DNA of 64,000 nucleotides. Origin: a virus. Taxonomy: Duplodnaviria > Caudoviricetes. Made by a program: the position numbers and the translations under genes. This document shows positions 1,820-40,624 of this stretch, piece by piece (the first letter of the stretch is position 1; each line of letters starts with the position of its first letter). Below the pieces are notes generated by a model, which saw only the letters and a list, made by a program, of their open reading frames with translations, did no database searches and was not told the DNA's origin. The DNA lies in the IMG/VR virus record IMGVR_UViG_3300027819_000006, one strand, 5' to 3'.

Positions 1820-2823
1820 TTATTTAACTCTATTGTCAAGAAATTATCTGCATTTCTAATATTATAATTTAAATGAGACATTATCCATCTATCTAAACAA
1901 ATATTAGTATCTTCTATTTCTTTTTCTGCATATACTATCGTAGGATTTTGCATGCAAAGAGTAAAATCTTTATCTAAGTAGTGCTTTCCAGTATGAATAA
2001 ATAAAAGTTTATTTTTAAGTATGTCTGTAACACCAGTATAAGAATATATGTTGCATTTTCTATGATTTAATGATATAGCTCCATATCTTTGAATACTATT
2101 ATAATTAGAGTATTTATCTGGTCTAAAACTTTTTCTTTGCTCTATAGAAGCCAATACTTTATGTGAACATAATAGATTTATAGTATCTAAACTTTTATTT
2201 TCTGACCACTTACTATACAAATGATCTATGTTGTCGATTGAATTGACATGTAATTTATATGAGCAAGCTATAATTCTATCTATGCAAGAAGATTCTATAT
2301 CATAAAATGAATTTTCAGCGATTATAGTAGAAAATTCAACTTCTGCATCTAATCTATTATATGATTTGAAATTTTTACTAACATCATCTTTAGATATCCA
2401 TCTCTGTCTTAACTTTCTAGTCTGAATAGAAATCTCTCTATCTATTATTGAGACCTTGTTACATTTACAACCATTCAAACTTAAATCTCTTATACTGCAG
2501 CTACAGCTATTTTTATAATATATTGGAATCGTTCTATTCGTATTAGTACATATCCGTATGTTAAACAAGTTATGACAAAAACTTCTATACATTCTAACCC
2601 ATATTGACAATGCTAAAGATTTGAAATATTCATCAGCATAATCAGATTTATTCAGAACACTAAAATTATCTAATATTCTCTTTATTGCAATTTTATGATA
2701 TAATGATTTATTGAAACCCCTTAAAAATGACTGCTCTATTAGACTTATCCATTTTTCTGGTTTGTTATTATATTCATCTAATAGCTTATTTTCATAATCT
2801 TCTATATTAATTTTGCTCTGCAT
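1816..2823 (-). CDS. protein with internal CxC-x8-GCxC module followed by a degenerate gp23-like capsid segment
   Basis: CSCSIRDLSLNGCKC at 2461-2505, then TRKLRQRW...YNRLDAEVEFSTIIAE; ATG at 2823 preferred over the track's start at 2829. Confidence 0.6.
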   Translation of the reverse strand: MQSKINIEDYENKLLDEYNNKPEKWISLIEQSFLRGFNKSLYHKIAIKRILDNFSVLNKSDYADEYFKSLALSIWVRMYRSFCHNLFNIRICTNTNRTIPIYYKNSCSCSIRDLSLNGCKCNKVSIIDREISIQTRKLRQRWISKDDVSKNFKSYNRLDAEVEFSTIIAENSFYDIESSCIDRIIACSYKLHVNSIDNIDHLYSKWSENKSLDTINLLCSHKVLASIEQRKSFRPDKYSNYNSIQRYGAISLNHRKCNIYSYTGVTDILKNKLLFIHTGKHYLDKDFTLCMQNPTIVYAEKEIEDTNICLDRWIMSHLNYNIRNADNFLTIELNK

Positions 2824-3191
2824 TGACATCCAATAGACATTAGAATATTCAAATCACAGCTACATTTCATATCATCAAACATTTTAACTACTTCTACATA
2901 ATCTTCATCTTTTTCAAAATCTAGAGCATCATCTTCATCAAATATAGCATACTCATAATAGTCTTCTAACATTATATTATATGTAGTCTTATTCATAGCA
3001 TATATTATTATTTTTGATATTTGATCATTATCAAACTCAGCATTCAAACAATAAGTAATGTCCCAACTATTCAAACTAGCTGCATCAAAAATAGATTCTA
3101 TACTAGAATAGATGTCATTTTTATCAGAAGTACTAGTTAATTCTGTGTCTTTATAGTAGAGCTGTAGAATATCTGTAATATCTAATTTCAT
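2802..3191 (-). CDS. hypothetical protein with C-terminal CxC-x8-GCxC module
   Basis: ends CSCDLNILMSIGCQCRAKLI. Confidence 0.7.
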   Translation of the reverse strand: MKLDITDILQLYYKDTELTSTSDKNDIYSSIESIFDAASLNSWDITYCLNAEFDNDQISKIIIYAMNKTTYNIMLEDYYEYAIFDEDDALDFEKDEDYVEVVKMFDDMKCSCDLNILMSIGCQCRAKLI

Positions 3192-3385
3192 TGATGCAAG
3201 CTCTCTTCTAATAACTTAAAATTTTTGTTCAGCGATTCAATTATAGAAGTTATTTGTAGTTCTGTGTATGACTTGTTTAATCTCTTTTTGCTATTTTTTA
3301 AACTTTCAAATACCAAAGATGCTGTACACAAATTATCTATTGTTTTTTCTACAATAGATCTATCTAAAGCAATTTTGTCATCCAT
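3188..3385 (-). CDS. small hypothetical protein
   Basis: 65 aa, overlaps both neighbours in operon fashion. Confidence 0.6.
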   Translation of the reverse strand: MDDKIALDRSIVEKTIDNLCTASLVFESLKNSKKRLNKSYTELQITSIIESLNKNFKLLEESLHQ

Positions 3386-3860
3386 TGATCTTTTCTATTA
3401 TGTTAGTTGTTGAAACTCCTTCAATCATTGTAAATTGTAATACTTTTCCACCATATGATTTAACATAGTCTGAGCCTATTATTTTCTTTACAGAATATTC
3501 TGAACCCTTTACAAGAACATCTGGTTTGACAGATTTAACTAAATTTAACACAGATTTATCATTGAATGCTACTATATAATCAACAAATGATATAGCAGAT
3601 AGTACTTTACTTCTGTTTTCTAAATTGTTTATTGGTCTGTCTGGTTCTTTATTCTGTTTAGTAGATTTATCTGAATTTATTCCTACTATAACTATATTGT
3701 TAGCATTTATATTTTTGCAGAAATTTAATAGGTCAGTATGCCCTGCGTGGATCAGATCCCAGATTCCATTAGTAAATATGACAGTTTTATTGCTGAATTT
3801 TGCATTCTGTATGCTGAATAATAAACTCTTTAGATCGACAATTTTTTCTCTATATCTCAT
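3378..3860 (-). CDS. rfaE2: D-glycero-beta-D-manno-heptose 1-phosphate adenylyltransferase (HldE/RfaE domain II type)
   Basis: VFTNGIWDLIHAGH, VVGINSDKS, RPINNLENRSKVL, KPDVLVKGSEY, STTNII motifs. Confidence 0.85.
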   Translation of the reverse strand: MRYREKIVDLKSLLFSIQNAKFSNKTVIFTNGIWDLIHAGHTDLLNFCKNINANNIVIVGINSDKSTKQNKEPDRPINNLENRSKVLSAISFVDYIVAFNDKSVLNLVKSVKPDVLVKGSEYSVKKIIGSDYVKSYGGKVLQFTMIEGVSTTNIIEKING

Positions 3861-4000
3861 TTTTGTTCTCTATATACAAAACTTTCTAATTCATTATCAT
3901 ACAAAAATATTAATCTGTATTTCAATTTCGAAATTTCTTCTTCTGTTTTTATTGGTATGATAGATATTATCTTTTCTGATACTAAATTTGATTTTTGCAT
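3857..4000 (-). CDS. 47 aa small protein missed by the ORF track (MQKSNLVSEK...YREQK)
   Basis: AAGG SD-like then ATG at 4000; TGA overlaps the rfaE2 ATG (ATGA). Confidence 0.5.
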   Translation of the reverse strand: MQKSNLVSEKIISIIPIKTEEEISKLKYRLIFLYDNELESFVYREQK

Positions 4001-4557
4001 TGGCAACCTTTTAATATTAAAGTGTCTATGTCACAAGTGCATCTATTAATTAAGGGTATTTTTATATGTAATTTATGCATTCTATCAGACCTTACTATAG
4101 CGTCACATTCTTCTATCAGTTTTGCAGATTTATTTTTACCATTTTTATACAAGTGCATTGCATCTTCAGATGGAGAAATTACAAACAATGGAGCAAAAAT
4201 TTTTTGAATTTCATTGAGATTATTTTTATCATAATTACTTTTTTTGAATTTTGCTATATCTTGAGAAGTTTCTATGTTAGTTTTTAATCTTCTTTCTATC
4301 ATAGGTACTCCGATAAAATCATCTATACAAACATTTAACATTATATCATTCATCATATTATCTTCAGAAGTAATTTTCCATATGTTTATATTTGATTGAC
4401 ATTCAAAACAATCACAGCTATGAATTTTATATTCTGGCATTACATGCTGACTATAATATATGGCAGCATACTGATTAATTACAGAATATATAAATCCTTT
4501 TACAAATGATTTAGATTCACTTTGAAAATGTTTATTAACATACTCTTCTAATGTCAT
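3982..4557 (-). CDS. hypothetical protein with C-terminal CxC-x8-GCxC module
   Basis: ends CTCDIDTLILKGCQCKNQI. Confidence 0.7.
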   Translation of the reverse strand: MTLEEYVNKHFQSESKSFVKGFIYSVINQYAAIYYSQHVMPEYKIHSCDCFECQSNINIWKITSEDNMMNDIMLNVCIDDFIGVPMIERRLKTNIETSQDIAKFKKSNYDKNNLNEIQKIFAPLFVISPSEDAMHLYKNGKNKSAKLIEECDAIVRSDRMHKLHIKIPLINRCTCDIDTLILKGCQCKNQI

Positions 4558-5603
4558 TTCAATCCTCTTTTCAATAAGATACTATCAACACATTCATCAA
4601 TTATTTCTATTACAGTTTTCTCTTGTTTTCCAAAAAAACTATGCAATAATGATGTATCACCAAGTCTTCTTTTTACCAAATTTGGATCATGTTCTTCATA
4701 TATAATTTTGCTTCTAGTGCAGTCAATTCCTTTGCTTGTAAGCAACTGCTCTATTATTTCTGTTAATTGTAATACAGATGTTTCTTTACCAGAACAAGCA
4801 TTTATAAAGCCCTCAAAATAGTCTGGATTCTTCTTACAAATACCTGATTGTGCAGCTAAAATGTTATATCTAGCTACATCTTCAGCATGTATAATATCTA
4901 GTGTCTGCTGTCCATTTCCATAGATAGTTATATCTTTTCCATCAATGAATGCATTTATAAATTTAGGTACAATCTGCACATAGATATTTTTATCTGACTG
5001 TCTTGGACTAGTTATATTAAAAGGTCTAAAAGATATAAACTTTAGTCCATCATTATCTGAATATGATTTTGCTATATGCTCTACAGATATTTTATTAGCT
5101 CCATATAGCAATGAATTATTTCTGAAATGATGTCTTTCATCTGTAGGAAAATAATCTGAATTTCCATACACAGAAGCAGATGAAGCAAATATTACTTTCT
5201 CTACTCCATATCTCAAAGACAACTCAAACATGTTGACAGAACCCATTACGCCACATTCTATTGCTTCGTATCTTGCTGATCTACTATCAAGAGTTAAAAG
5301 CGACGCTTGATGAAATACATAATTTGGTCTGAAAACATCAAATATGAAATCCATCTTTCTATAATTCGTTATATCATCTCTATAAAAATGTATTCTATTA
5401 TCATTTTCAGAAGCATATTCATAGGCCCTGTCTAGATTAGACAGATTGCCATTATACATATTATCAATTACGACAATATTAGAACCTTTGTAGTATTTAG
5501 CTAATAACTCTACTATATAACTTCCAACATTTCCCGCGCCGCCAGAGATTACAGATGTAGTGCAATCTTTCTGCTCTATCTGTTTGATGTTACTATTCAT
5601 CAA
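4554..5603 (-). CDS. NAD-dependent nucleotide-sugar epimerase/dehydratase (extended SDR)
   Basis: GGAGNVG Rossmann motif, FASSASVYG, YGANK (YxxxK), IYGNGQQTLDIIH. Confidence 0.9.
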   Translation of the reverse strand: MMNSNIKQIEQKDCTTSVISGGAGNVGSYIVELLAKYYKGSNIVVIDNMYNGNLSNLDRAYEYASENDNRIHFYRDDITNYRKMDFIFDVFRPNYVFHQASLLTLDSRSARYEAIECGVMGSVNMFELSLRYGVEKVIFASSASVYGNSDYFPTDERHHFRNNSLLYGANKISVEHIAKSYSDNDGLKFISFRPFNITSPRQSDKNIYVQIVPKFINAFIDGKDITIYGNGQQTLDIIHAEDVARYNILAAQSGICKKNPDYFEGFINACSGKETSVLQLTEIIEQLLTSKGIDCTRSKIIYEEHDPNLVKRRLGDTSLLHSFFGKQEKTVIEIIDECVDSILLKRGLK

Positions 5604-5887
5604 CCTCCACTATCGTCGTCTTCATCATCTGATTCTTCATCTTCAGAATCAAGATCTGAATCTTTGTCTTTATAGCCATGATAAACATGTTCAGCATCTT
5701 CAAATCCCCATTCTAACATTGTCAACATGTTCTCTAATTCTTCTTTTACTATTTTAAGTTTACTTCTGTAATACTTGACCGAGCCTTCAGATCTTCTCAA
5801 ATCTATCATGTCTAAAATGTCTGATGATTCTTCTGACAATACATTTAGAGCATCTTCTAATCTATTGCTGATTCTCACTGAGGCCAT
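5600..5887 (-). CDS. small protein with acidic C-terminal tail
   Basis: 95 aa; D/E-rich tail; GGAG SD upstream. Confidence 0.7.
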   Translation of the reverse strand: MASVRISNRLEDALNVLSEESSDILDMIDLRRSEGSVKYYRSKLKIVKEELENMLTMLEWGFEDAEHVYHGYKDKDSDLDSEDEESDDEDDDSGG

Positions 5888-5888
5888 T

Positions 5889-6235
5889 TTAATTTCTCCT
5901 GTTTTGTTTGCATTGACAGCCTTGTAGCATTAATGTATTCATGTCGCATAAACATTTTCTGCTATAATCAGATTCAAAATGAAAAAATGTATCAGTTGGT
6001 TTTTTCATGGGTTGAGTAACTGCAAATTCTTCTATTATATAGCTAGACTATGTTTTTATCAGCTCTTTCTAAGTATTCATTAAATATTTCTATTGGAGCA
6101 TCTTCTATGGATGGAAAAGTAACAGACATCTCTATATCGTTGTTTACATAGAGCATTCTGTTCCAATCTCTTTTAAAATTTCTGTTGCTTAATTCTTTAC
6201 AGCGCTAATATTTCAATTTCAGATTGCTCAGTCAT
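5889..6235 (-). pseudogene. frameshifted gene ending in the CxC-x8-GCxC module
   Basis: ATG at 6235 (MTEQSEIEILA); two frame changes join CKELSNRNF...DKNIV and SYIIEEF...KCLCDMNTLMLQGCQCKQNRRN*. Confidence 0.6.
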
Positions 6236-6623
6236 TTTTCAGCTCTTTCATTCTATCTGAATAGCACCCACATCCATATCTAGTTAAATTATCTACACTA
6301 CAAATACATTCTGTAAATTCAAAGAAATCATCTAATATAATTGATTCAAGTGTTACAGTTATTTCTGGTATTTCATTAGGTTCTGTTTTGCTTGTTTCAT
6401 ATTTAAGATAGAAATATAGAGGTTTGAAATTAACTTCTTGGCATTTATCTCTTAAAGTTGTTATCTGTCCAACAAAATTTTTCGGTGCTGGCATTTCATA
6501 TGTACCATTATTTTGTTTGAACTGTAATTCTTCTTTTGATATTTCTTTTCTGAGAAATTGACTCAGTAATGTATCTGATTGATCTTTATAAGATTTAATT
6601 GCTCTTGCTTTTGATACTGTCAT
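6228..6623 (-). CDS. hypothetical protein with C-terminal CxC-x8-GCxC module
   Basis: ends CICSVDNLTRYGCGCYSDRMKELKND. Confidence 0.7.
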   Translation of the reverse strand: MTVSKARAIKSYKDQSDTLLSQFLRKEISKEELQFKQNNGTYEMPAPKNFVGQITTLRDKCQEVNFKPLYFYLKYETSKTEPNEIPEITVTLESIILDDFFEFTECICSVDNLTRYGCGCYSDRMKELKND

Positions 6624-7201
6624 AATAGCTCCTTGCTTTTATATAGTTTTTCTAGTTCTTTTAAATGATTGAACTTCAGCTCATTATTTATCAATTTTTC
6701 TGACATTTCAGAATATATTTTATGCCAATCTTTCAGATATGCTGAACTAACTGTTAAGTTAATTTCAACATCTTTATCTTGTTTTGCCATTTTAGTAAGT
6801 TTTTTCAGATCAAGTTCAGAATTAGAATTCAAATAAAACAACATTGGTCTGATATTATTTCCTAAAAATCTAGATAAGAATGCTCCTTCTAATTGTTTTT
6901 CGGGAGTAGCTTTACCTATAGGGTATTTATTCTCAGGATTATATGTCTTGCCTTTCTCTAAAGGTTTTATAGCATTAAATTCTTCTAATGTTATTTCACG
7001 CAAATCAAACTTGAATTTCTCTTTTCCTTGTTGTAACCTATTTAAGAAATTATAAGCATATTTATTGAAATCGTCTAAAACAGCTGAATAAGGTTTTTGT
7101 TTAGTATTAAATCCTAAAAGTTCTTTTTCATTATACTTTTCGTCATATTCAGAATATCTAAATTCTTTAATCTGATAACCATCCATTCTATCTCTGATCA
7201 T
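6620..7201 (-). CDS. hypothetical protein; may originally have started at ATG 7302 (one frameshift)
   Basis: frame stays open upstream of 7201 with no start codon; MTVKEAL at 7302 joins it by a -1 shift. Confidence 0.6.
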   Translation of the reverse strand: MIRDRMDGYQIKEFRYSEYDEKYNEKELLGFNTKQKPYSAVLDDFNKYAYNFLNRLQQGKEKFKFDLREITLEEFNAIKPLEKGKTYNPENKYPIGKATPEKQLEGAFLSRFLGNNIRPMLFYLNSNSELDLKKLTKMAKQDKDVEINLTVSSAYLKDWHKIYSEMSEKLINNELKFNHLKELEKLYKSKELL

Positions 7202-7304
7202 TTCTTCTATTTGCTGTCTTGAATCTGTAAAAACAATTGTATCTCCATTTTTATATTTGTTTTTATGTATTTCTTCATTTTGAGAGCTTCTTTTACTGTC
7301 ATAA

Positions 7305-7538
7305 CTATAGTCTATCTCCTATGAATTCTTTCTTCTGTTTTTTAGCATATTTTTCCATTACTTGTTCATCACTCATTTCATCAAATCCAAGTTCACACCA
7401 TCCAAGGTACCAAAATTTCTTGCTATGCCATTTATTTTTAGTATGATAAGGATTGATGCTTACTGATAAGCCAATATTTTTTATTGATTTACCTTTTAGA
7501 TAAGCTGAAATCTTCTTGTTTTCTCTCTTTTTGTTCAT
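7305..7538 (-). CDS. small basic hypothetical protein
   Basis: 77 aa, operon-like overlap. Confidence 0.6.
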   Translation of the reverse strand: MNKKRENKKISAYLKGKSIKNIGLSVSINPYHTKNKWHSKKFWYLGWCELGFDEMSDEQVMEKYAKKQKKEFIGDRL

Positions 7539-8032
7539 AGTTCATTCCTTCTGTATGATCCACAAGTACATCCCTGCAATATCAATGTATCAATGTTGCA
7601 TGTGCACTTTTTAATTATTGATTGCATGTTTTCTGCAGTTATTGGTCCTAATTTGTATTCTGCTACTATGCTTTTTGCTACATTGCAACAAATAGATTCA
7701 TGAAGATTTTCTAAATCATATAGTCTATTTTTTAGAATGTAATCATAATGTTCATTAATTTTCATAGTTGTAATATCATTATTGAACAATTTATCTGATT
7801 TTGTTAAAGAAGCTTCATCTACTGTTTCTTTAAATAGAATTATATTATCAATATTTTCATGAATATCTACTTTTACTCTATCAAGAGCAACTTTTTGGGT
7901 CCTGTAAGTGAAACATAATTCTAAATAAAATTTAATATCTTCTATACAAGCATAGCATAAATCATATTCTTTATAATTTTCATCAATTTCAAAATATTTA
8001 GAATGATCTACTGTTTTATTAGCACATCTCAT
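7535..8032 (-). CDS. hypothetical protein with C-terminal CxC-x8-GCxC module
   Basis: ends CTCNIDTLILQGCTCGSYRRNEL. Confidence 0.7.
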   Translation of the reverse strand: MRCANKTVDHSKYFEIDENYKEYDLCYACIEDIKFYLELCFTYRTQKVALDRVKVDIHENIDNIILFKETVDEASLTKSDKLFNNDITTMKINEHYDYILKNRLYDLENLHESICCNVAKSIVAEYKLGPITAENMQSIIKKCTCNIDTLILQGCTCGSYRRNEL

Positions 8033-8943
8033 TTAATTTTCTCAATTTCTTGTAAGAATCTCTTAACTGCATCTTTCCAATCTGGCATCTGTTTTAGCTC
8101 TTTGCATTTTCTCAATCTATAGCAATCTAAAGCTGAAAAATTTGGTCTCTTGACATTGGAGTAAAACTCTGAAGCTTTTACTGCTTCTAATAAATTAACA
8201 TCCCAACCCATCAATTCGTAAATATATTTGGCAAACTTATACCAGCTCAGAACTCCTCTGTTAACTATATTCCATGTCCCATATTCTTGTACATCATGAA
8301 TTAGCATATCTACTAAAACTTCACTAATGTCTTTAGTATATGCTATGGAGATAATCTGGTATGACACTACTTTTGTTACATCTTTTCCATTATATTTGTT
8401 CATGATCATATATGGAAAATTGCTCCAATTTTTAGCTGAACTACCTTTCTTGCCAAATAGAGATGATACTCTTATATTAAAATATTTATTGCATATAGCT
8501 TTCAGAGTCATTTCTCCAGCAGCTTTTGTTACTCCATAGAAATTCAGAGGATCTACTTTTGCAAATTCTGTGAATCCTTCAGATGTTAGAGCTTGAGATG
8601 AATCCGAGCCAAGCACATAGTCAGTACTAAAATTAATGAGCAGACTATCGTATTTATTTGCCAACTGAGCCATATTTTTTACAGCAACTATATTGACCTC
8701 GCAAGCTAAAGATGGATTATTTTCAATTTGTTCAACATTATGACATGATGCTCCGTTAATTACGATGTCAGGACGTAAATCTTCAAAATAGTGCTCTATA
8801 AGTTTAGGATCAGTAACATCTAATTCTTCTCTATTTCTAGCTATAGTTAAAAATTTATCTCCATGCAGTTTTAGATTACTATAGAGATCAGAGCATAATT
8901 GCCCATCGCTGCCAGAAATTAAGACTCTCTTTACTAAACTCAT
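8029..8943 (-). CDS. rfbD: dTDP-4-dehydrorhamnose reductase (RmlD)
   Basis: ISGSDGQL, FSTDYV, PLNFYGVTKAAGE, RPNFSALD motifs. Confidence 0.9.
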   Translation of the reverse strand: MSLVKRVLISGSDGQLCSDLYSNLKLHGDKFLTIARNREELDVTDPKLIEHYFEDLRPDIVINGASCHNVEQIENNPSLACEVNIVAVKNMAQLANKYDSLLINFSTDYVLGSDSSQALTSEGFTEFAKVDPLNFYGVTKAAGEMTLKAICNKYFNIRVSSLFGKKGSSAKNWSNFPYMIMNKYNGKDVTKVVSYQIISIAYTKDISEVLVDMLIHDVQEYGTWNIVNRGVLSWYKFAKYIYELMGWDVNLLEAVKASEFYSNVKRPNFSALDCYRLRKCKELKQMPDWKDAVKRFLQEIEKIK

Positions 8944-9524
8944 TACTTAGTTTCCCTCTTCCAATCCCAACCCATTATATCGACAGAAGCTCTATATTCA
9001 TCAGATCCGTTATATTTGTTATTTATAAAGTAGAGTAAAATAGCTTCTTCATTTGTAAAATTAAAAGAGCCATGTTGTAATCCTCTTCTCACTATTACAG
9101 GGCCGTTATTAGTGTTCCTATCAGACAAATAAAACCATTTACATACTGGTCCATTTATAAAATCAGAATATAAATCTTTATTCTGTTTAAAATAATCTGA
9201 ATTCATAAAATCAAACCACTGATTAACTAATTTTAGTCGTTGAATTTTTGAATAATCAGATGTTTTTTTAATGAAATCATCAAGAGTTTTATTATCATAT
9301 CTCTCTCTATATAAATCATAAACTGCTTGACTATAATTTGGAACATTACAAATTCCAATTTTTAGAGAACCTTTGAGCACAATTTGATAATCATCTTGAG
9401 CATAATGCATGTGGAAAGCTGCTAGTGTACCTGGATAAACTATACTGCAATTTATGTCTCCCTCTTTCATAGAAGAAAATATGTCACAGTATCTCTGAGC
9501 TCTATCATCTCCACCTGCTCGCAT
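8943..9524 (-). CDS. rfbC: dTDP-4-dehydrorhamnose 3,5-epimerase-like cupin (RmlC) with internal insertion
   Basis: PGTLAAFHMHYAQDDY and GLQHGS cupin motifs; adjacent to rmlD. Confidence 0.7.
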   Translation of the reverse strand: MRAGGDDRAQRYCDIFSSMKEGDINCSIVYPGTLAAFHMHYAQDDYQIVLKGSLKIGICNVPNYSQAVYDLYRERYDNKTLDDFIKKTSDYSKIQRLKLVNQWFDFMNSDYFKQNKDLYSDFINGPVCKWFYLSDRNTNNGPVIVRRGLQHGSFNFTNEEAILLYFINNKYNGSDEYRASVDIMGWDWKRETK

Positions 9525-9763
9525 TAGATCAATTCCTTTCTACAAATACACCCTTTTAATGTCAAAGTATCTATATCACAGACACATTCTATATTATTAG
9601 TAGCAATTTTATTAGCAAATCTTTCAAATTTAAAGTTATTCCTCATCACACTTCTCATGCCATTTTCTATATACCACTCAGAATAATTTTTTACTGATCT
9701 TATTTCATAGCCACTATTTTTAAGATATCTCTGAATATCTTCTGGTAATTTACTTTCATTCAT
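9524..9763 (-). CDS. small protein with C-terminal CxC-x8-GCxC module
   Basis: ends CVCDIDTLTLKGCICRKELI. Confidence 0.7.
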   Translation of the reverse strand: MNESKLPEDIQRYLKNSGYEIRSVKNYSEWYIENGMRSVMRNNFKFERFANKIATNNIECVCDIDTLTLKGCICRKELI

Positions 9764-9778
9764 AACGCACCTCTTAAT

Positions 9779-10243
9779 TTAATATAGCATCGAAACTTTT
9801 AAAGCATTATCGAGCACTTCGTCAAGCTTGTCAATCGTCAAATTACGCTTCTTATTATAAACTGCTACTTCATCAGCTGCTTCTAATCTTTCTTTATCAG
9901 ATAATTCTTTATTTCTTCTAGCATCCTCAAGCGACCACAGCTTCTTCGTGTAAGTATTCAAATCTGCTATCAAATCTAGAAAATAATCATCTTGTTCTGC
10001 ATGTACTGTTTTATCGTAATTCTTATATTTTTTATACGTAGCTGGTCTATCCCAATTAATTATACTGACAAGTATAGATGATAATTCTTTTATTAACCAG
10101 CCTCTCTGTTCTAGAAGTCTGTCTATTACTTCTAATTCTTCTTCAGATCTTGCTGTTTCTCTGTTTACTTTAATTCTTTGCTCTAATATGCAAAGCTGAT
10201 CAATTATTCCACCTAAAGTTTGAATTTTATAACACTCCATCAA
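9779..10243 (-). CDS. DUF4254-like helical protein
   Basis: LWSLEDARR...YNKKRNLTIDKLD pattern recalled for DUF4254. Confidence 0.5.
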   Translation of the reverse strand: MMECYKIQTLGGIIDQLCILEQRIKVNRETARSEEELEVIDRLLEQRGWLIKELSSILVSIINWDRPATYKKYKNYDKTVHAEQDDYFLDLIADLNTYTKKLWSLEDARRNKELSDKERLEAADEVAVYNKKRNLTIDKLDEVLDNALKVSMLY

Positions 10244-10609: not shown

Positions 10610-10610
10610 A

Positions 10611-10874: not shown

Positions 10875-10881
10875 CTATCTA

Positions 10882-11208
10882 TTATACAAAAGTCATTTCA
10901 AATTCTTTTTTGCATATACAACCCTGCAATATCAGAGTTTGCATGTCGCATGTACATATGTCATTAATTGTACTTATTCCATTATTTTTATCTTTGCAAT
11001 TGTGCAAACATTCAAAGATATATTTTATGTTATCTTCTGTATATTTGTGAGTGTCAGGAAAATGTATAGCATCTCTATAACAAAATTCACATGTCAATCT
11101 CAGCTTTTCTTTATAGTTGTCCCAAGTGTCTAATTTTGAATTATATGTGAAACCCAAATGTTTTAAAAATTTTTGTATAGTAGCTATATCTTTATTCATT
11201 TCCAGCAT
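10882..11208 (-). CDS. hypothetical protein with C-terminal CxC-x8-GCxC module
   Basis: ends CTCDMQTLILQGCICKKEFEMTFV. Confidence 0.7.
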   Translation of the reverse strand: MLEMNKDIATIQKFLKHLGFTYNSKLDTWDNYKEKLRLTCEFCYRDAIHFPDTHKYTEDNIKYIFECLHNCKDKNNGISTINDICTCDMQTLILQGCICKKEFEMTFV

Positions 11209-11233
11209 CTCAATTAAATTTTAATACAATAGA

Positions 11234-12097
11234 TTAGCAAATTATACGCCAAACTATATCTATTTCGTCTTCCCAGATGCGAATTAGTCTATAACCATTA
11301 TCTTCAGCTATTCTATTTTTTCTATTATCATTATCAATCTTTCCCTTTTGCCATTCATTTACAGGTCCATTAACATATATTCTAGGATTACAGTGATAAT
11401 AGTTACCATCAACTTCTATTAACATGTTATATTCTGGAATATAAAAATCAAAATAAGATTTATTTAAATAAAACTGACTCTTATACTCTATATTTAAACT
11501 ATCTAAAATCTTAGCTATTTTTATTTCAGGTTTACTTATTCTATATTTAAGACATTTTTCATTTCTATTTTTATTTCTTGCAATCCACATTTCTTCTGCT
11601 TTTTCAAGACCATGTTTTTCTATCCATATATCTTTAAGTGATTTACCATACATGGGATTTTTGCTTCCAGAAACATCTGCATGATTTTCTGACATACTAA
11701 CAGTTGATTTTTTTATTCTTTCATCAGTTTCTTTAGTTAAGCCTTTATTCCATGTTATTATAGATCCTTGTTCAAGCCTTTCTATTCGTGTTTCAGATAT
11801 TTTATTACATGATTCGATAGAATGTTTTCTACCATACATGGGATTATTTTCACCCTTTGCTAAACCTTTTTCTATTCTAGTTTTAGATATTTTAGCTTTA
11901 GTTTCTTCAGATGCTTTTCTCCCTTTCAACTTTCCTGAATTTTTACATTTATGACATTTTCTATTCAGCCCAGTAACTTCGTTCAAGCAATTTGTCGCAG
12001 CACATTTATATTTGATATATTCTATGCATTCTTGACATATTCCAGATTTATTTCTATTGCCTAATTCATTAATACCACAAATATAGCATAATAGCAT
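11234..12097 (-). CDS. free-standing homing-type endonuclease: Zn-finger + NUMOD3 repeats + DUF559/Vsr-like nuclease
   Basis: CxxC pairs; SEETKAKIS and NPMYG repeats; C-term YFDFYIPEYNMLIEVDGNYYH...LIRIWEDEI. Confidence 0.8.
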   Translation of the reverse strand: MLLCYICGINELGNRNKSGICQECIEYIKYKCAATNCLNEVTGLNRKCHKCKNSGKLKGRKASEETKAKISKTRIEKGLAKGENNPMYGRKHSIESCNKISETRIERLEQGSIITWNKGLTKETDERIKKSTVSMSENHADVSGSKNPMYGKSLKDIWIEKHGLEKAEEMWIARNKNRNEKCLKYRISKPEIKIAKILDSLNIEYKSQFYLNKSYFDFYIPEYNMLIEVDGNYYHCNPRIYVNGPVNEWQKGKIDNDNRKNRIAEDNGYRLIRIWEDEIDIVWRIIC

Positions 12098-12229: not shown

Positions 12230-14608
12230 TTATTTTAGTTTACATTTTATAAAAAATCCCTTATCGATATCTTGTAAATATTCATATTCTAAATTTACTA
12301 AATTTAACAAATATTCTATAGCTTTAGGAGTTGGTAGCCATACGTGCTCTCCCTTACCTATGGTTTGCCATCTCTGCATATGTTCTTGTGCTTCTATGCA
12401 TCTAAAATTTGGACATCCTATAAATAATAGTGAATTTTCATGCATCAAATTTTTACAATTATTTAAGAATTCTAAAGGATTTGTATGCTCTATTACTTGA
12501 TCAGAAAATAGAATATCAAATTTTTTATCAGTAAATAGTTCAAAACTACCATATAGAAGCTTGTTTTTTAATTCTGGGAATAATTCTAATCCTTTATCTA
12601 TGCTGGGCTTATTTATATCTACTCCTACAGCATCATAGCCTTCTTCTATAGCAGCTTTTACAACCAGTCCGCAGTTAGCTCCAATATCTATAAAAGAACC
12701 TGAATTTTTGTACTGCTTAGCTTTCAAAACATTGGGTTTAGAATGATTATTAAAAACTTCTTGCCATCTAAAACTATATTCATCAGATATATTCTTCTCT
12801 TGATCTATATGTATATTGTAATCATTTTTCTGTATGAAATCTAATTCCTCATTTACATAGTATTGACTTCCTGGAATATTAAAATAGAATTTAGATTTTT
12901 TGCTATTATCTATCATTAGCTTAGGTTTTTCTAAGAATTTATCAATAGCTGCTATAACATGCTCTGGTTCGATGCTAGACATGCATATAAATTGACTAGT
13001 GTTTACGCATTTTGGAATAAAAGTTAATCCACCATTGTCTAACAAGTTAAAAAATTGTGAATGTTTGCATGAAATGCATTCTAGAGCATTATTCTGTATA
13101 TAGTATATATATTCTCTGTTAGCATTGCTTAAATAAGTAGAAGCTGCTCCATTGATAGCGATAGAGGGAATATTAAATGATCTTGCTATATGAATTGGAC
13201 CATTATCTCCACCTAAGAAAAATTCGCTATGTTTAATTAGAGATAATAGTGTTTTTAAATCGACTTTATGATACTTGCTGTCTGTCAATTCAGAAAAATC
13301 AGATAGACCAGGCTCTATTACTTTATGACCTTTTTTTTGTAAATATTCTATTATAGATTTATATTTAGCTTGTCCTAAAGTTTTTCCTCCCCACCCGCTA
13401 CCATCTGCTACTACCACAACATAGGGTTTTAAATGAGAAAAATCTTCATATAGATGATTACTATTATCTAGTTCAGCATATTTATCTTTTGGATTATTAA
13501 ACGTTATATCTGCTGTTCTAGCATAGGAATCAATGAATAATTTATTTTTTGAGCTCTCATATGATAGATCGAGAGAGATTTTTAACTGATGATTAGTATT
13601 GTTTAAATGATCTTCTAATATTAATTTGTCATCTATTTTTACTATTTCATCGGGCTTATGAGCAAAATATTCTACTATTTCAGGTTTAGCTGTATAGAAA
13701 GTAATTTTGCATCCTTCATATTTTTGTCTTAATTTCTTTACTATCGGCTCACATAGCAATATATCTCCAATACCAACTACACGAGAAATTCCAATGTCAA
13801 CTATTCCAGATGTCTGTTTTAGTATATCTAATATTCTATTATTGTGTTCTGTAAATGCAGCATTTCCCATCAGAGTTGGAAATGTTCTCTTTATTTCTAT
13901 ATCATCATCTTTTTCTATAATTTCTTCTTTAATGTCTACAGATTTAGGTGCTCCAATTTGCTTAGCTATATCTTCCAAAGACATCTGCTGTTTTCCACCA
14001 CCAAATTTGACCCATTGAACAACAGTAATTTCTGCTGGTATGCAACCTCTATATCCTTTTTCTGCCCATTGCTTCAGTACAAGCCCAGGCATGAATAGAG
14101 GCTGTCCATCTTTTACTTCTACACATTTATTCCAGTCTACTTCTACATCTTTGAAATGACAGATTTCATCTAAACATATTTCTTCTATTTTTGGAGGATT
14201 TGATATTCTGAAACCAATTGTATTCAGAGGATGATCTGGAATATCTACATTTCTATATTCGCAATGTCCAAGAGCATATTTACAGTGCTTATTATTTGCA
14301 AAATCTTCTAAATGTGCAGCTATATGTCTTGGAAACCACATTATGTTATTGACAGTCTTGTAAAAAATAATATCAGCAGAAGCTAACTTAAGTGCCTCAT
14401 TGAATAGAGAGACACTCTCGTCAGTTTTAATAAATCTTATATTTAGAGATATTTCTTTACACTTCTCTTTAACAGTATCTAAATCTCTTATAGAAGACAC
14501 AATTAAATCTATATTTTTATGAGTCTGTTCAAACACATTCTTGATAGAGTTTTGAACATGTATGTCATCTGAATTTTCAGCTATTAATATGACGGTTACT
14601 AAATCCAA
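12230..14608 (-). CDS. multidomain glycosyltransferase: GT2-like + GT9-like + class I SAM methyltransferase
   Basis: RVVGIGDILL, FFLGGDNGPIHIARSF (GT9); FIDIGANCG and FSDQVIEH (MTase). Confidence 0.8.
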   Translation of the reverse strand: MDLVTVILIAENSDDIHVQNSIKNVFEQTHKNIDLIVSSIRDLDTVKEKCKEISLNIRFIKTDESVSLFNEALKLASADIIFYKTVNNIMWFPRHIAAHLEDFANNKHCKYALGHCEYRNVDIPDHPLNTIGFRISNPPKIEEICLDEICHFKDVEVDWNKCVEVKDGQPLFMPGLVLKQWAEKGYRGCIPAEITVVQWVKFGGGKQQMSLEDIAKQIGAPKSVDIKEEIIEKDDDIEIKRTFPTLMGNAAFTEHNNRILDILKQTSGIVDIGISRVVGIGDILLCEPIVKKLRQKYEGCKITFYTAKPEIVEYFAHKPDEIVKIDDKLILEDHLNNTNHQLKISLDLSYESSKNKLFIDSYARTADITFNNPKDKYAELDNSNHLYEDFSHLKPYVVVVADGSGWGGKTLGQAKYKSIIEYLQKKGHKVIEPGLSDFSELTDSKYHKVDLKTLLSLIKHSEFFLGGDNGPIHIARSFNIPSIAINGAASTYLSNANREYIYYIQNNALECISCKHSQFFNLLDNGGLTFIPKCVNTSQFICMSSIEPEHVIAAIDKFLEKPKLMIDNSKKSKFYFNIPGSQYYVNEELDFIQKNDYNIHIDQEKNISDEYSFRWQEVFNNHSKPNVLKAKQYKNSGSFIDIGANCGLVVKAAIEEGYDAVGVDINKPSIDKGLELFPELKNKLLYGSFELFTDKKFDILFSDQVIEHTNPLEFLNNCKNLMHENSLLFIGCPNFRCIEAQEHMQRWQTIGKGEHVWLPTPKAIEYLLNLVNLEYEYLQDIDKGFFIKCKLK

Positions 14609-30557: not shown

Positions 30558-30564
30558 TTATTTC

Positions 30565-31578: not shown

Positions 31579-31581
31579 TTA

Positions 31582-35505: not shown

Positions 35506-35532
35506 TTATATTTTCTCATTAAAAATGAATTA

Positions 35533-35886
35533 CTACAGACTGATAATAGAATTACCAGTTCCAGCTAAATATCTATTGTACAAAGACATAAACCCTATTT
35601 TGAAAGAACTTGTCTTGATAGAATCCAATATTCCATCTAAATAGCCATCACTTATAGCATATTTGCCTTCTGCTGCCAATGCTCTTGCATTCTCTACATA
35701 GTTAATTAGATCATCTTTTCTTTTCTTTGTAGCAAATCCTGATAGTTCTTGATTATGATCTATGATATATTTTGTGAAAGATTTCTTTTCAGATATATCT
35801 ACTACTTCAGACATGACTTTTCTGATTTCATCTTTTACGATTCTTCTGATTATCTGTGCTTCTGTTAGTTGCTGTTTCTGTTTCAT
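35533..35886 (-). CDS. leader-tagged small protein
   Basis: MKQKQQLTEAQIIRRIVKDEIRKVMSE; start at 35886 avoids overlap with the next gene. Confidence 0.6.
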   Translation of the reverse strand: MKQKQQLTEAQIIRRIVKDEIRKVMSEVVDISEKKSFTKYIIDHNQELSGFATKKRKDDLINYVENARALAAEGKYAISDGYLDGILDSIKTSSFKIGFMSLYNRYLAGTGNSIISL

Positions 35887-35911
35887 GTTTTTAAGTCTCC
35901 TTTTTAATTCT

Positions 35912-36172
35912 TTATAGATGTAATTGTTCCAGCTTTGAGTAATACTGCTTATTTTCTTTAAGGTGGGCCCAAGCAATCTTTCCTGTCTTGATTGGATCAT
36001 CGTCTGTTATGTTTGTTTCTGGATCTTTTAACCCATGCTCGCTCTCAATATTTAAGCCCATTGTAAACTGATCTAAGCTGATCTGTTTCCAATCAATGCC
36101 AAGCTGGTTTCCAATGTCTTTAGCTCTTTTCTTAGATATTTGTTTTGATTCTAATAAGATGTTGAGTTTCAT
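35912..36172 (-). CDS. leader-tagged DUF5661-like protein
   Basis: MKLNILLE; ESEHGLKDPETNITDDD..KIAWAHLKE..YYSKL. Confidence 0.7.
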   Translation of the reverse strand: MKLNILLESKQISKKRAKDIGNQLGIDWKQISLDQFTMGLNIESEHGLKDPETNITDDDPIKTGKIAWAHLKENKQYYSKLEQLHL

Positions 36173-36792
36173 TATGGTTTGCCAATTTTAGCAAGAGGAT
36201 GATATATTAAATCTTCATCTCTTTTAATTGAGTTCATATAATATTCATAAGATTGTAATCCAAATTTTTCTAATCTTTTAAATTTATATGCTCCTTGAGT
36301 AGTAGATGTATCTATTTTATCTCTATTTTCATAGTCTTCTTTTGCTTTTTGAGCATTTTCTAATCTTTTTGAAATGCTATTCTTAACTTCTTCAAATATT
36401 TTTGGCACAATATAAATTTTAATCAGATATCTATCGAGAGGTTTTATTGGACCATTTATTAGCAATTCTTCTGCTTCAACTTTATTTTTTTGACTTTCTT
36501 TTCTTCTATCATGAAAAGCATATGCATAAGGTCTAATTTTATATCTAGCTCTTAATTTATCCCAGTCTAATTCAAAACAAACATCCATAGATTTGCTGCC
36601 TATAATAACATATCTGTCTCTAGTAAGTGATACGACACCTGATTCAAAATGAGGATTCTTAAATGTAGCTACATCTTCATATTCTACTTTGCCTATACCA
36701 TTCATAGCAACTATATTTTCTGCCCACCCTACATAAGTCCAATGATATAGAGATTGTCTAGATTGTTCTAATATTAAATCTTTAAGTTTCAC
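36172..36792 (-). CDS. leader-tagged ADP-ribosyltransferase-fold-like protein (His type)
   Basis: GTG start gives MKLKDLILE; LYHWT, VSLTRD, EAEE motifs. Confidence 0.55.
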   Translation of the reverse strand: MKLKDLILEQSRQSLYHWTYVGWAENIVAMNGIGKVEYEDVATFKNPHFESGVVSLTRDRYVIIGSKSMDVCFELDWDKLRARYKIRPYAYAFHDRRKESQKNKVEAEELLINGPIKPLDRYLIKIYIVPKIFEEVKNSISKRLENAQKAKEDYENRDKIDTSTTQGAYKFKRLEKFGLQSYEYYMNSIKRDEDLIYHPLAKIGKP

Positions 36793-36897
36793 TTTCTCAT
36801 TTGCTCCAATATCCAATCTGTTGCTTTATACAGATAGCTCATGATTATCAAAACTATCATTATATGAACGAAATCTGAAATGTATATCAATCATATT

Positions 36898-38286
36898 CTA
36901 TTGCACAGAGAAAAACCATTTCTGTTTATTGGCATAGATATATGTAGATCCTTTTAATGACAGTTTTAACAAAATATAGTATTTCTTATTTGCATATAAG
37001 TCCTGACAGTTAAATTGTAGGAAATTTCCAACCTTATCGAATGATAAAGTGTCAGCTGGAATCTCCGTCGAATCTGTATCTAGCTCATGTAGCTCCCAGG
37101 TGCTATTTGTGGCAATAAAATTCTGTTGCGCTGTTGTAGCTCCAGTTGCAGCTACCAATGATACAGAGTTGTCTTTTATGTTTATTCTAATTCTTGGTTG
37201 TGAATTCTTGTCATAAACATTGCTCAAATTCTGCAATATAACTCTATAAGAAGAAGTCTGATAATTATCAAATCCAGAAGCTGGATTTATTGTTGTAAAT
37301 GAAAATGTATAATTTGCTGTAGGAGATGCAGAGATATACCAATTGTCTTTGAATGAAGTAGCAGCAAATGCATTTGAAGTCAGGGGCATTGTTCCAATAT
37401 TACACTGATAAATACCTTTAGACCATCTTTTAGCTGTCAAACTTGTTTTAATTGCAGAAACAGCATTGTTTGAAGATGAAGTTCCAGATAGAGTAATGTT
37501 TCCAGGGAAATCTCCAGATGCTACAGCATTCAAATCTGTTAGCTGCCCATTGACTATATTATAGAAAAATAGATTAGCTGTTGAATTAAATGCAACAAAA
37601 TTTCTGAAATCTTGTATTGCTCCAGGCCACTCTAGAGAAATAAATGGCCTATTCGTAGTGTTAGTCTGACGAGAATAAAATTTCTTTGTATAGTAACTGA
37701 ATGCTGATAAAGAGCCTGCTTTATTCTCTTCTGTATTAGACATTCTAATCATTAAGCCCTGATTGGCTGTTTGAGAGTTTGTCCATGCCTTAAAAATATT
37801 TGTAATGTTGATTCGGAGATTTTCTTCTCCCTGAGGGAAATATTGAGTAGCAGAATTTGCATCAATTACATAATCTCCACCAGAAGCATTCCAAGCAGTA
37901 GAATTTGTAGCAGACACAGCATTTGCAAAACCAGTTTGAGACATAGAATTGTTTTCTAACCCAGAAGATTCAGACCAATTACTAGTTACTGGATATACAT
38001 TTAAATTGAAATTAGAAGCTAATGGATCTCCATGTTTACAGTTGAAAAGATTTAAATATGCAGACACAGTAGTGTCAGTTATTATGTCGGGCAAATCTCT
38101 ATTTATAATATTAGCTGTGCATGAAGATATATTGAAAGATATTAATATTCTTGCCCAATTTTTAATGTTAGTATTATTATTGAACAATGTCCAAGTTTCT
38201 AATATGGGAGATGCTCCAAAATTAGAAGTTATGGATTTATCTGTTATAAAAGTGTCTTTATCTGACCAAGATCTAAACACGCTCAT
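36898..38286 (-). CDS. virion structural protein (DNRLRE-domain-like)
   Basis: DKDTFIT..SNFGASPILE, ARILISF, NQGLMIRM, YTKKFYSR, RPFISLEW. Confidence 0.7.
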   Translation of the reverse strand: MSVFRSWSDKDTFITDKSITSNFGASPILETWTLFNNNTNIKNWARILISFNISSCTANIINRDLPDIITDTTVSAYLNLFNCKHGDPLASNFNLNVYPVTSNWSESSGLENNSMSQTGFANAVSATNSTAWNASGGDYVIDANSATQYFPQGEENLRINITNIFKAWTNSQTANQGLMIRMSNTEENKAGSLSAFSYYTKKFYSRQTNTTNRPFISLEWPGAIQDFRNFVAFNSTANLFFYNIVNGQLTDLNAVASGDFPGNITLSGTSSSNNAVSAIKTSLTAKRWSKGIYQCNIGTMPLTSNAFAATSFKDNWYISASPTANYTFSFTTINPASGFDNYQTSSYRVILQNLSNVYDKNSQPRIRINIKDNSVSLVAATGATTAQQNFIATNSTWELHELDTDSTEIPADTLSFDKVGNFLQFNCQDLYANKKYYILLKLSLKGSTYIYANKQKWFFSVQ

Positions 38287-39516
38287 TTATTATCTCCATA
38301 ATTCATAACAAATTCTATGTTATTGTTTGAGCAATAAATCTTAGCAGCTTCTATTTTTAAATTTAACTTTTCCTGATCAAATATTCTGCCTTTTGTTTCT
38401 TCTAATACTATTTTATTTTTATATTGTATTAAAAAATCAGGTATATATCGTCTCAATCTGTCATATTCATATTTTATAACTATATGATGTTTTTTTGTCC
38501 ATTTTATAACATTCATATCTTTATCTAATTCTTTCATTCTTTGCAGCTCAAGTCCACTAGCATAAAATTCTTCTATTCCAGTTTTTATAGAAGTATAATA
38601 CCCTCTTTTAAAATATTTTACTCCATAATTTTCGCATCTATTTGCTGCAGCTATACTCATTTTTTGTTTTGTTTCTTCAGATATTATAAAATGTCTGCCA
38701 GTACTAATTTTAGACTGATGTTCACATTTGACTTTCCACATCTCTTCAGCTTTTTCAATTCCATATTTATCTATCCAAACAGATTTTACAGACACTCTAT
38801 ACATTGGATTACCAGAACCAGAAATCTTTTCAGAAATGTTTGCATTTCTTTCTGCCCACATTTCTTTGGCTATTTCAATACCGTATTCTTTTATCCAAAT
38901 ATCTTTTACTGAAACTCCATACATTGGATTCAAATCACCTACTCTATTTGACCCAAACATAGGATTGTTTTCTCCTGACATATTCTTTGAGCCAACTATT
39001 TTAAATTTATCGCTTAATATATCATTAACTGTTTTGCTATCTGGAAATTGTTTTCTATATTTTTCAGAACTAATATTATGTTTGGATTTTAAATGTACAC
39101 ACAAAGCTTCAAAATATCTGTGACATATTAAACATTCTATTTTATTTTCATCTGCATTAAAAGAATTGTCAATATAGATTTGTTTTTTTGATTTTGGTCT
39201 TTTATTTCGTATTTCTTGAATTTTTTCTTCGCTAAACATTTCTTTATATTTTTTATCTTTACTCCAAATAACTATCTCTTTATTTAAATGTCTTCTTTTT
39301 AAAGTTTCAGAAATGCGTCTTTTTCTACATACTAAACATCTTCTGTTTATATCTTTTGTAATATTAGAACAATCTTTTTCTATACAATAGAAAGTTTCAT
39401 TGTCTCTATGTTTAGAGCAAGTAGTATATCCTTTGTTTATAGTTTTTTCTCTTAATTTAGCTGCACAGTATTTACAATTCAAAACTATACCTCCATTTAT
39501 CTGCCCATGATCTAAA
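38257..39516. repeat. 21-bp imperfect direct repeat (38257-38277 and 39496-39516) flanking an endonuclease gene
   Basis: tttatctgaccaagatctaaa vs tttatctgcccatgatctaaa, 19/21 identical; encode FRSWSDK and FRSWADK. Confidence 0.75.
38283..39482 (-). CDS. free-standing Zn-finger/NUMOD3/TnsA-like endonuclease
   Basis: GGAGG + TTG start; CLICHRYF..HLKSKH, NPMYG repeats, YASGLE...RYIPDFLIQY..LEETKG. Confidence 0.8.
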   Translation of the reverse strand: MNCKYCAAKLREKTINKGYTTCSKHRDNETFYCIEKDCSNITKDINRRCLVCRKRRISETLKRRHLNKEIVIWSKDKKYKEMFSEEKIQEIRNKRPKSKKQIYIDNSFNADENKIECLICHRYFEALCVHLKSKHNISSEKYRKQFPDSKTVNDILSDKFKIVGSKNMSGENNPMFGSNRVGDLNPMYGVSVKDIWIKEYGIEIAKEMWAERNANISEKISGSGNPMYRVSVKSVWIDKYGIEKAEEMWKVKCEHQSKISTGRHFIISEETKQKMSIAAANRCENYGVKYFKRGYYTSIKTGIEEFYASGLELQRMKELDKDMNVIKWTKKHHIVIKYEYDRLRRYIPDFLIQYKNKIVLEETKGRIFDQEKLNLKIEAAKIYCSNNNIEFVMNYGDNK

Positions 39517-39938
39517 TATCATTTTTAATTCTCTTCAATATGAAATCATGTTTATGTCTAATTCTATCGATAATATATCCATAATTTAAAATATATTAAT
39601 TAATTTCCTATAAAGATCTTCTTTTTCTTCTTCATTAGCAGTTATGTGTATATATTTTCTTTTTCTAAAAAATCTCTAACTGCATTTATAACATTAGAAA
39701 ATACTATAAATTCATGACCAGATTTAGAAATCAGTGGATCGTAATATACTGTATTATCATTTTTTGTTTTTATACCAAAATAAACATCCCAATAAGTATT
39801 TCCTATATTTTTAGAAACTACATGTTTTGATATGCTTGTTCTATACTTTAATTTATCTACTGTAAAATAATATTCTATTCTATCAACAGATCTTCTTTTG
39901 GTAAATTTTTTAGTGTCAAACAATTCTTTAAGCAGCAT
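39512..39938 (-). pseudogene. leader-tagged paralog of 40621-41043, with apparent frameshifts after 39645
   Basis: MLLKELFD; alternative frame continues ITANEEEKEDLYRKLI, matching FTAKEYSRIKLYKRMI of the paralog. Confidence 0.55.
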
Positions 39939-39940
39939 CT

Positions 39941-40624
39941 CTAATTTCTCTTTTTAGGAATAGATCCACATTTGCAGCCATATAGAATCAAAGTACTCAT
40001 ATCGCATTCACAGTCATGAATCTTTTTAGTCTTACTATCTGGTACAGTATTTACAATCCATTCACTCTCATGATCATATTCTGGAGGATCACATGCATTA
40101 TAATCTATATCTGCATCTTCTTCAAATATTTCACAGAAGAAATTACCAAGACATTCTCTATGATATAAGTCTTCTGTAAATAGATGAGAATAGCTAAGTT
40201 GTTTCATATCTTCTTGGTTTATTGAATATTTCTTATAGAAATTATCATTAACATTTACAAGCTCTAATAATATATCTCTATCTATGCCATGTGCAAAATT
40301 ATAGTAATCTTTCTCTGTTCTCATTTTCATAGGAGTAGTACAGTAATATCCATCTTCTAATATTGGAACTTTATTATCCATAAAATCAAATTCATCAAAA
40401 TATATTTTATGATTGTCATACATAGTCCAGTCTAAGATGTAATCTTTATATGTTACACAATCGAAACTACCAGCATAATTATGACTGTCAACTATGTTAA
40501 TCATGTTATTTTTATTATGTATTACTGTCACTACATTGATACCAGCTGTAATATTTTTTATTACATCTTTGATCAATCTTGTAGTTTTACCAGATCTTCT
40601 ACCAGATATTTCTAAATACATCAT
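39941..40624 (-). CDS. P-loop NTPase domain with C-terminal CxC-x8-GCxC module
   Basis: GRRSGKT Walker A, IYFDE Walker B; CECDMSTLILYGCKC. Confidence 0.75.
   Translation of the reverse strand: MMYLEISGRRSGKTTRLIKDVIKNITAGINVVTVIHNKNNMINIVDSHNYAGSFDCVTYKDYILDWTMYDNHKIYFDEFDFMDNKVPILEDGYYCTTPMKMRTEKDYYNFAHGIDRDILLELVNVNDNFYKKYSINQEDMKQLSYSHLFTEDLYHRECLGNFFCEIFEEDADIDYNACDPPEYDHESEWIVNTVPDSKTKKIHDCECDMSTLILYGCKCGSIPKKRN

Follow-up and report, generated by a model that had tools for sequence, protein, structure and literature searches.

Why should nine otherwise unrelated proteins of one phage carry the same cysteine-rich module of 15 residues? The question is raised by a 64-kb stretch of DNA (IMG/VR record IMGVR_UViG_3300027819_000006; 30.4% GC; the whole stretch is called the window below), part of the 271,887-bp (272-kb) contig of an uncultured groundwater myovirus, in which an initial annotation made from the letters alone had pointed out nine 45-nt copies of a CxC-x8-GCxC module. 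We found that the module is genuine, that selection acts on it as a peptide, that it is a C-terminal element gained and lost independently of the protein body carrying it, and that it is unusually numerous in this phage lineage. All nine copies translate, on the minus strand, to an in-frame match to C.C.{8}GC.C inside an open reading frame (ORF); the encoded proteins are designated carriers A to I:

2461-2505, minus strand: module copy CSCSIRDLSLNGCKC of carrier A, the sole internal copy, at residues 109-123 of a 337-aa ORF
2820-2864, minus strand: module copy CSCDLNILMSIGCQC of carrier B, 5 residues ahead of the stop
3997-4041, minus strand: module copy CTCDIDTLILKGCQC of carrier C, 4 residues ahead of the stop
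5910-5954, minus strand: module copy CLCDMNTLMLQGCQC of carrier D, 6 residues ahead of the stop
6264-6308, minus strand: module copy CICSVDNLTRYGCGC of carrier E, 11 residues ahead of the stop
7562-7606, minus strand: module copy CTCNIDTLILQGCTC of carrier F, 8 residues ahead of the stop
9542-9586, minus strand: module copy CVCDIDTLTLKGCIC of carrier G, 5 residues ahead of the stop
10912-10956, minus strand: module copy CTCDMQTLILQGCIC of carrier H, 9 residues ahead of the stop
39968-40012, minus strand: module copy CECDMSTLILYGCKC of carrier I, 8 residues ahead of the stop and 29 kb from the other eight

As initially annotated, eight copies lie near the C-terminus, 4-11 residues ahead of the stop codon, and the ninth (2461-2505) is internal. 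Cys1, Cys3, Leu8, Gly12, Cys13 and Cys15 are present in nine of nine, together with Asp, Ser or Asn at position 4 and Ile, Met, Leu or Val at position 5. A six-frame regular-expression scan of the window returned exactly nine matches, all in minus-strand ORFs, and 50 shuffles of its sequence returned none (0 motif matches). In a local scan of the window with the family hidden Markov model (HMM), the nine copies scored 33-44 bits and the next-best stretch 6.9 bits; given this gap, the window holds no decayed or degenerate extra copies.

The level at which the copies are conserved was determined from their codons. Pairwise identity among the nine copies was 0.69 at codon position 1 and 0.73 at position 2, but 0.415 at position 3, near the 0.33-0.35 of their 45-nt flanks, and cysteine was encoded by both TGT (22) and TGC (14). 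Because positions 1 and 2 are conserved and position 3 is near flank level, selection acts on the peptide, which bears out the initial argument from synonymous divergence. The same pattern refutes the notion of a repeat that matters at the level of DNA or RNA (for recombination or regulation, for example) and is translated by chance, to which we give practically no credence: the copies do recur near gene ends and on one strand, but their third positions have diverged almost to flank level and the same peptide is made from very different DNA, in loci of 28% to 63% GC.

Measured carrier lengths are 39, 79, 108, 129, 131, 165, 191, 227 and 337 aa. The range of 79-336 aa given initially had to be corrected; it starts at 39 aa because the copy at 5910-5954 lies in a 39-aa ORF. 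The carriers were compared with those of a syntenic sister locus of 15.7 kb from groundwater metagenomes (L001), which has five module copies, and of a further relative (L012):

1816-2829, minus strand: carrier A, 337 aa (database form 335 aa), with about 214 residues after the module
2802-3191, minus strand: carrier B, 129 aa; L001 ortholog of 127 aa, 56% identity (BLASTP), module kept
3982-4557, minus strand: carrier C, 191 aa; L001 counterpart of 114 aa
5889-6008, minus strand: carrier D, 39 aa; a 56-aa D-like counterpart lies at the same position in L012
6228-6623, minus strand: carrier E, 131 aa; ortholog P0007 (142 aa, 69% identity) in groundwater metagenomes
7535-8032, minus strand: carrier F, 165 aa; shares 4 nt at its start with the end of an RmlD-like gene; no L001 counterpart
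9524-9763, minus strand: carrier G, 79 aa
10882-11208, minus strand: carrier H, 108 aa (database form 105 aa); L001 counterpart of 98 aa, 35% identity
39941-40624, minus strand: carrier I, 227 aa, with a P-loop nucleoside triphosphatase (NTPase) body at residues 1-130, a low-confidence linker at 129-199 and then the module

In scans of the nine carriers against Pfam, PHROGs and NCBIfam, no significant family was found except phrog_2727 for carrier H (residues 9-79, E 3.3e-5, a match to the body and not to the module) and a sub-threshold thymidine-kinase-like P-loop for carrier I; carrier A had no family match and, like D and F, has no counterpart in L001. The P-loop NTPase that had been noted among the carriers is the body of carrier I. 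Its resemblance to thymidine kinase is weak (Pfam TK, PF00265: 16.5 bits, E 0.0078, against a cut-off of 20.6 bits), and Foldseek with the carrier I model likewise gave weak P-loop and thymidine kinase matches, the top ones being thymidine kinases at E 0.18 and template-modelling (TM) scores of 0.28-0.40.

Portability of the module, as claimed initially, is supported by the absence of carriers A, D and F from L001 and by two further lines of evidence. In an all-versus-all BLASTP of the carriers, similarity was centred on the module, and once the module was removed three matches remained at E<=1, against 0-7 for shuffled sets; the bodies are thus no more alike than shuffled sequences, in agreement with the initial view that the carriers are mutually unrelated. 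In addition, homologs of carrier I's P-loop body (MYLEISGRRSGKT...FDEFD...EDGYYCTT) occur without the module (P0065, P0066 and P0067) and, in one case, with it (P0064, on an IMG/VR contig). Since the same body occurs with and without the module, the module has been gained and lost independently of the body. This P-loop family (MYLEISGRxSGK(S/T)...FDEFD...EDGYYCTT; 39941-40624, P0065, P0066, P0067), itself weakly thymidine-kinase-like, is also found on contigs of 10, 179 and 427 kb.

These data bear on the alternative that the carriers are one diverged paralog family of which the module is merely the best-conserved end. When composition correction was omitted, carriers G and H aligned over 47 aa and F and G over 70 aa, beyond the module, and a short N-terminal motif is common to G and H, which may be distant paralogs. 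As an account of all carriers, however, the alternative is largely refuted and highly improbable: module-less matches do not exceed those of shuffled sets, the P-loop body is known in both forms, and carriers from elsewhere (57-264 aa in the profile search described below) match no known family, as judged from about 25 of them in Pfam, PHROGs and NCBIfam. Neither a match to a characterised domain nor homology of the full-length carriers was found, the two outcomes that the initial annotation had set against its own reading.

Comparison with the sister locus showed how the carriers change. Between the window and L001, enzymes are 75-84% identical and carriers 32-69%. Over five orthologous carrier pairs, the module is identical at 59 of 75 residues (79%) and the remainder at 210 of 468 (45%). 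Carrier C and its counterpart have in common the N-terminal 75 aa (32% identity) and the module, and the middle ~100 aa are absent from L001. Of carrier D, only a relic of the 3' end is left there: the L001 ortholog of E (L001:10360-10429, compared with window 5889-5954) reads on into ...IGCYSEPNRRN, which aligns with the end of carrier D, QGCQCKQNRRN. Because the DNA alignment matches the end of D, we regard this tail as the in-frame-fused relic of a lost module gene. The comparison with L001 and L012 thus indicates that carriers turn over fast while the module is held. L012 itself looks chimeric (1-700 versus 780-1884): one end consists of long overlapping Arg/Ala/Gly-rich frames typical of high-GC DNA, and the remainder, which is AT-rich, is phage DNA that encodes a D-like carrier, an acidic protein and an epimerase in synteny with the window.

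How far the module extends beyond this lineage was examined with an HMM of the module, the search that the initial annotation had proposed. The profile was run exhaustively against 1.84 billion representative proteins; of the 54 that matched at E<=1e-3, two are artefacts of repeats and 52 contain C.C.{8}GC.C exactly. The module therefore defines an unnamed family with the exact motif in 52 protein clusters, a lower bound on family size as these are representative clusters. With carriers added by DNA pattern scans of metagenomes and IMG/VR, 76 distinct instances were assembled. Their consensus is K-C-T-C-D-I-x-x-L-M-(R/L)-x-G-C-(K/Q)-C-G-G-K, with Cys1, Cys3, Gly12, Cys13 and Cys15 invariant and Leu8 in 75/76. 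The module lies within 12 residues of the C-terminus in 84% of instances, 33 of them with exactly three residues past the last Cys, and, compared with the bodies, the 14 residues ahead of it are of lower hydrophobicity and include more disorder-promoting residues (paired Wilcoxon p about 1e-5). Other arrangements also occur: the metagenomic protein P0014 (119 aa) has two tandem modules, at residues 70-84 and 97-111, after an N-terminal domain of ~65 residues, and P0017 and P0034 have the module near the N-terminus.

Module-bearing records range from 32 to 595 kb and carry 1-4 copies each: four near-complete genomes (167-390 kb) have a single copy apiece, and LR756511 (595 kb) and a 64-kb fragment have four each. 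Since other records carry 1-4, nine copies in 64 kb are the densest set among the records examined. In IMG/VR, a first strict DNA pattern had 0 matches and the strict DNA pattern found 12 stretches; two module-bearing records are classed as proviruses by IMG/VR, so that integration may occur. Among 50,697 phage records (INPHARED), tblastn with three tail variants matched only the uncultured 595-kb phage LR756511 and none of the cultured phages, and no module copy was found in Microcystis phage Mel-JY01, the closest cultured relative by tail sheath, or in LR756508. The strict DNA pattern had 0 matches in 185,579 prokaryote genomes; a looser pattern gave 64 matches there, none of them credible (out of frame, interrupted by stops, or Cys/Gly noise), including one candidate rejected because it overlaps, in a different frame, a gene for a permease. 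In word-indexed protein searches, module profiles mainly retrieved proteins of the window itself. We conclude that the module represents an unnamed family that was confined to phage-type DNA in these searches, and that this lineage has an unusually high number of copies.

The metagenome pattern scan returned 15 loci, three of which are real module carriers. The other 12 consist of two recurring sequences whose frames open 2-13 codons past the previous stop, and were rejected as module genes. A near-identical DNA stretch recurs on many contigs (L008, L010, L011, L013-L015 and L017-L020, on Ga0209700, Ga0209489, Ga0099824 and Ga0123340 contigs), reading in frame CRCDI(H/D)RL(N/S)FLGC(I/L)C, 2-9 codons past the previous stop. 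Conservation of a non-coding or RNA element is the probable explanation here, rather than a protein module. A metagenomic phage-like contig (L016:447-5681) has about nine small ORFs in tandem, each ending in (K/E)KLM(E/D)A(F/W). Their common PE(G/D)ATHY...YYW body marks them as a paralog family with a C-terminal motif of its own, and one neighbouring ORF has the CxC module instead.

Within the window, eight copies are interleaved, as first annotated, with glycosylation genes, namely those for a GT2 glycosyltransferase, a cytidylyltransferase-like protein, an NAD epimerase, an RmlD-like protein and a GT9-methyltransferase fusion. The last (12230-14608, minus strand) is a 792-aa GT9 heptosyltransferase-like protein with a C-terminal class I methyltransferase domain and is 78% identical in the sister phage. 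The eight carriers form part of a tightly packed minus-strand array in which neighbouring genes often overlap by 1-4 nt. The ninth, carrier I, lies 29 kb off between small DUF6934-like genes, near a nuclease gene. Carriers in other phages sit in unrelated gene contexts, so the link to glycosylation looks lineage-specific; it was not seen outside this lineage and probably arose as small accessory genes built up between conserved ones. Two nuclease-type genes (11234-12097 and 38283-39482, minus strand) each lie within ~500 nt of a carrier, one upstream of H and one downstream of I; one has NUMOD3 and Vsr/DUF559-like regions, the other NUMOD3, a ROS/MucR-like region and a TnsA-like N-terminal domain. 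The genome has a tail sheath, 34% identical to that of Microcystis phage Mel-JY01, and a baseplate hub. The sequencing runs holding the stretch are groundwater metagenomes, with no RNA run among those listed.

No named family covers the module, in keeping with the initial annotation, which had recognised none: Pfam, PHROGs, NCBIfam, PDB sequences and full-text literature searches name none. PDB sequence searches with two module profiles gave nothing relevant, full-text searches for motif strings and CxC/phage terms gave no description, and an ESM Atlas feature search with a module fragment gave no usable match. The SWIM zinc finger (PF04434; CxCxnCxH) was the only Pfam family matched by more than one fragment (3/54 module fragments at E<=10, best E 0.019). 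It resembles the module in its opening CxC pair and in the similar spacing to the second ligand pair. The fourth ligand of the module, however, is Cys in 76/76 instances and never His, whereas canonical SWIM fingers in phage genomes read CTCDSFKFGKGKYCKH, and the inter-pair segment of the module is modelled as a helix, while the SWIM fold is described as beta-beta-alpha. All module scores were below the 19.6-bit gathering cut-off, the nine window carriers had no SWIM match in Pfam at E<=1, and hhalign of a 77-row module profile against a thin SWIM profile of three phage fingers covered 4 columns (CxCD) at a probability of 2.6%. Because the His ligand is absent, scores are sub-threshold and hhalign covers only CxCD, the module was not filed under SWIM. 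Rubredoxin-type zinc knuckles and zinc ribbons likewise have four Cys in two pairs with a Gly next to a pair, and are small, metal-stabilised and often terminal, but their pairs are CxxC (CPxCG) and not CxC, and the Gly of the module precedes its second pair; there was no sequence or fold match to them (Zn_ribbon_8 matched 1/54 fragments, E 0.084).

The closest functional analogue is the C-terminal tail of the CopY repressor. In Enterococcus hirae this tail of 14 residues (CxCx4CxC, ECNCIPGQCECKKQ) binds Zn(II) and Cu(I), the isolated tail peptide is sufficient for metal-driven dimerisation, and metal binding orders the peptide (PMC12648655). Both are short Cys4 motifs that consist of two CxC pairs, lie at the very C-terminal end and have basic residues after them. 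They differ in that CopY has x4 spacing and no helix, whereas the module has an invariant CxC-x9-CxC with a helix and an invariant Gly, and in that the CopY tail is part of a single repressor family, whose body is a winged helix, whereas the module occurs on unrelated phage ORFans. No sequence homology between the two was detected.

Structure prediction is consistent with a small autonomous fold. AlphaFold2 modelled the module block of carrier G (56-row alignment) at a predicted local distance difference test (pLDDT) score of about 91, with a helix at residues 64-69. For carrier I it gave a confident P-loop domain (1-130), a linker of ~70 residues with pLDDT <50, and a helix at 209-215 within the module, which scored 80-84. 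The module is thus modelled as CxC, a short helix and GCxC, which fits a self-contained knuckle on a tether. Foldseek and VIA-align with the carrier G model found nothing above Z 2.3, and a complex prediction with two module tails and two Zn returned 'no answer' (score 0.02), which speaks neither for nor against binding.

What, then, might the module do? The reading that we favour, and to which we would give an even chance, is that of a self-contained, metal-folded C-terminal mini-domain used as a common docking or address tag. In a mini-domain of about 20 residues, two CxC pairs would flank a short amphipathic helix ending at the invariant Gly, and the four invariant Cys would together bind a single metal ion, most likely Zn(II), so that the flexible hydrophilic linker would end in a rigid knuckle. 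Lys-1, Asp/Ser4, Ile/Met5, Leu8, Met9, Lys/Gln14 and Gly+1 might then present one common surface, through which unrelated tagged phage proteins could share a partner that recognises them, or a destination. The initial annotation, which had proposed a metal knuckle with a tag function, therefore stands in part: portability, carriers that are not one paralog family and the lack of a named family hold, while we infer the knuckle and the tag from the four invariant Cys and the Gly, the local fold in the AlphaFold2 models, the C-terminal site after a hydrophilic linker and the analogy with CopY. Several points weigh against this reading. A single ion is chelated less well by CxC than by CxxC pairs, and CxC pairs often form multinuclear clusters of Cu(I) or Zn instead. 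The conserved hydrophobic residues Ile5, Leu8 and Met9 could simply form a mini-core and not a binding surface. No gene was identified as co-occurring with the module across unrelated phages, and the four near-complete phage records of 167-390 kb have one copy each, a situation that a common hub neither requires nor predicts.

Three other functions were weighed against the docking tag. A tag for virion packaging and co-injection, loading diverse small effectors into the head, seems very doubtful. Encapsulin cargo-loading peptides and the T4 capsid-targeting sequence are short conserved terminal peptides on flexible linkers of unrelated cargo; the module is also short, conserved and terminal, on a flexible linker of unrelated proteins, and is restricted to phage-type DNA. 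Those address peptides, however, have no cysteines or metal, the T4 signal is N-terminal and cleaved off, and one carrier, a P-loop NTPase, would be an unlikely cargo.

An intermolecular metal-cluster or redox tag, in which Cu(I), Zn or an Fe-S cluster is bound jointly by at least two tails and the tagged proteins thereby oligomerise or sense redox state or metal, is quite unlikely in our estimate. In its favour, CxC pairs tend towards bridged clusters, metal makes the CopY CxCx4CxC tail dimerise (PMC12648655), and many tagged proteins are co-encoded in one operon-like array; but AlphaFold2 gives a confident monomeric fold, and the spacing is x9 with a helix, not x4.

It is also unlikely that the module is a protective or folding cap, a metal knuckle that has no specific partner and only stabilises small, fast-evolving proteins or shields C-termini from host proteases. 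The carriers are indeed small, quickly diverging ORFans, several near-complete phage records are single-copy, and the tag sits at the extreme C-terminus, with 33/76 instances having exactly 3 residues past the last Cys. Yet the non-ligand positions Asp/Ser4, Ile/Met5, Leu8, Met9, Lys-1 and Gly+1 are conserved across loci of 28-63% GC, beyond what a generic cap needs, and in the models the module appears on a long flexible linker, not packed on the body.

The docking-tag reading can be extended to a phage-wide C-terminal address label, a metal-folded peptide that would send any small protein acquiring it to one shared destination. That destination might be a hub protein of the host, an assembly that the phage builds or, for co-injection, the inside of the capsid. 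On this view the present lineage, with nine copies in 64 kb, would have assembled an exceptionally large set of tagged proteins. We put this forward as a speculation that is unlikely to hold. If it were true, the module would be a new cysteine- and metal-based counterpart of encapsulin cargo-loading peptides.

Pfam, PHROGs, NCBIfam and the PDB all lack the domain family that the module defines. Most small phage genes are without known function, and a movable tail on dozens of unrelated small proteins implies a common interaction or destination, so that identifying the partner of the tail would annotate all tagged proteins together. A metal-folded tag of 15-20 residues that works on unrelated bodies could also serve as a tool. 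For the phage itself, the nine carriers show how a lineage can multiply one tag across its variable accessory genes.

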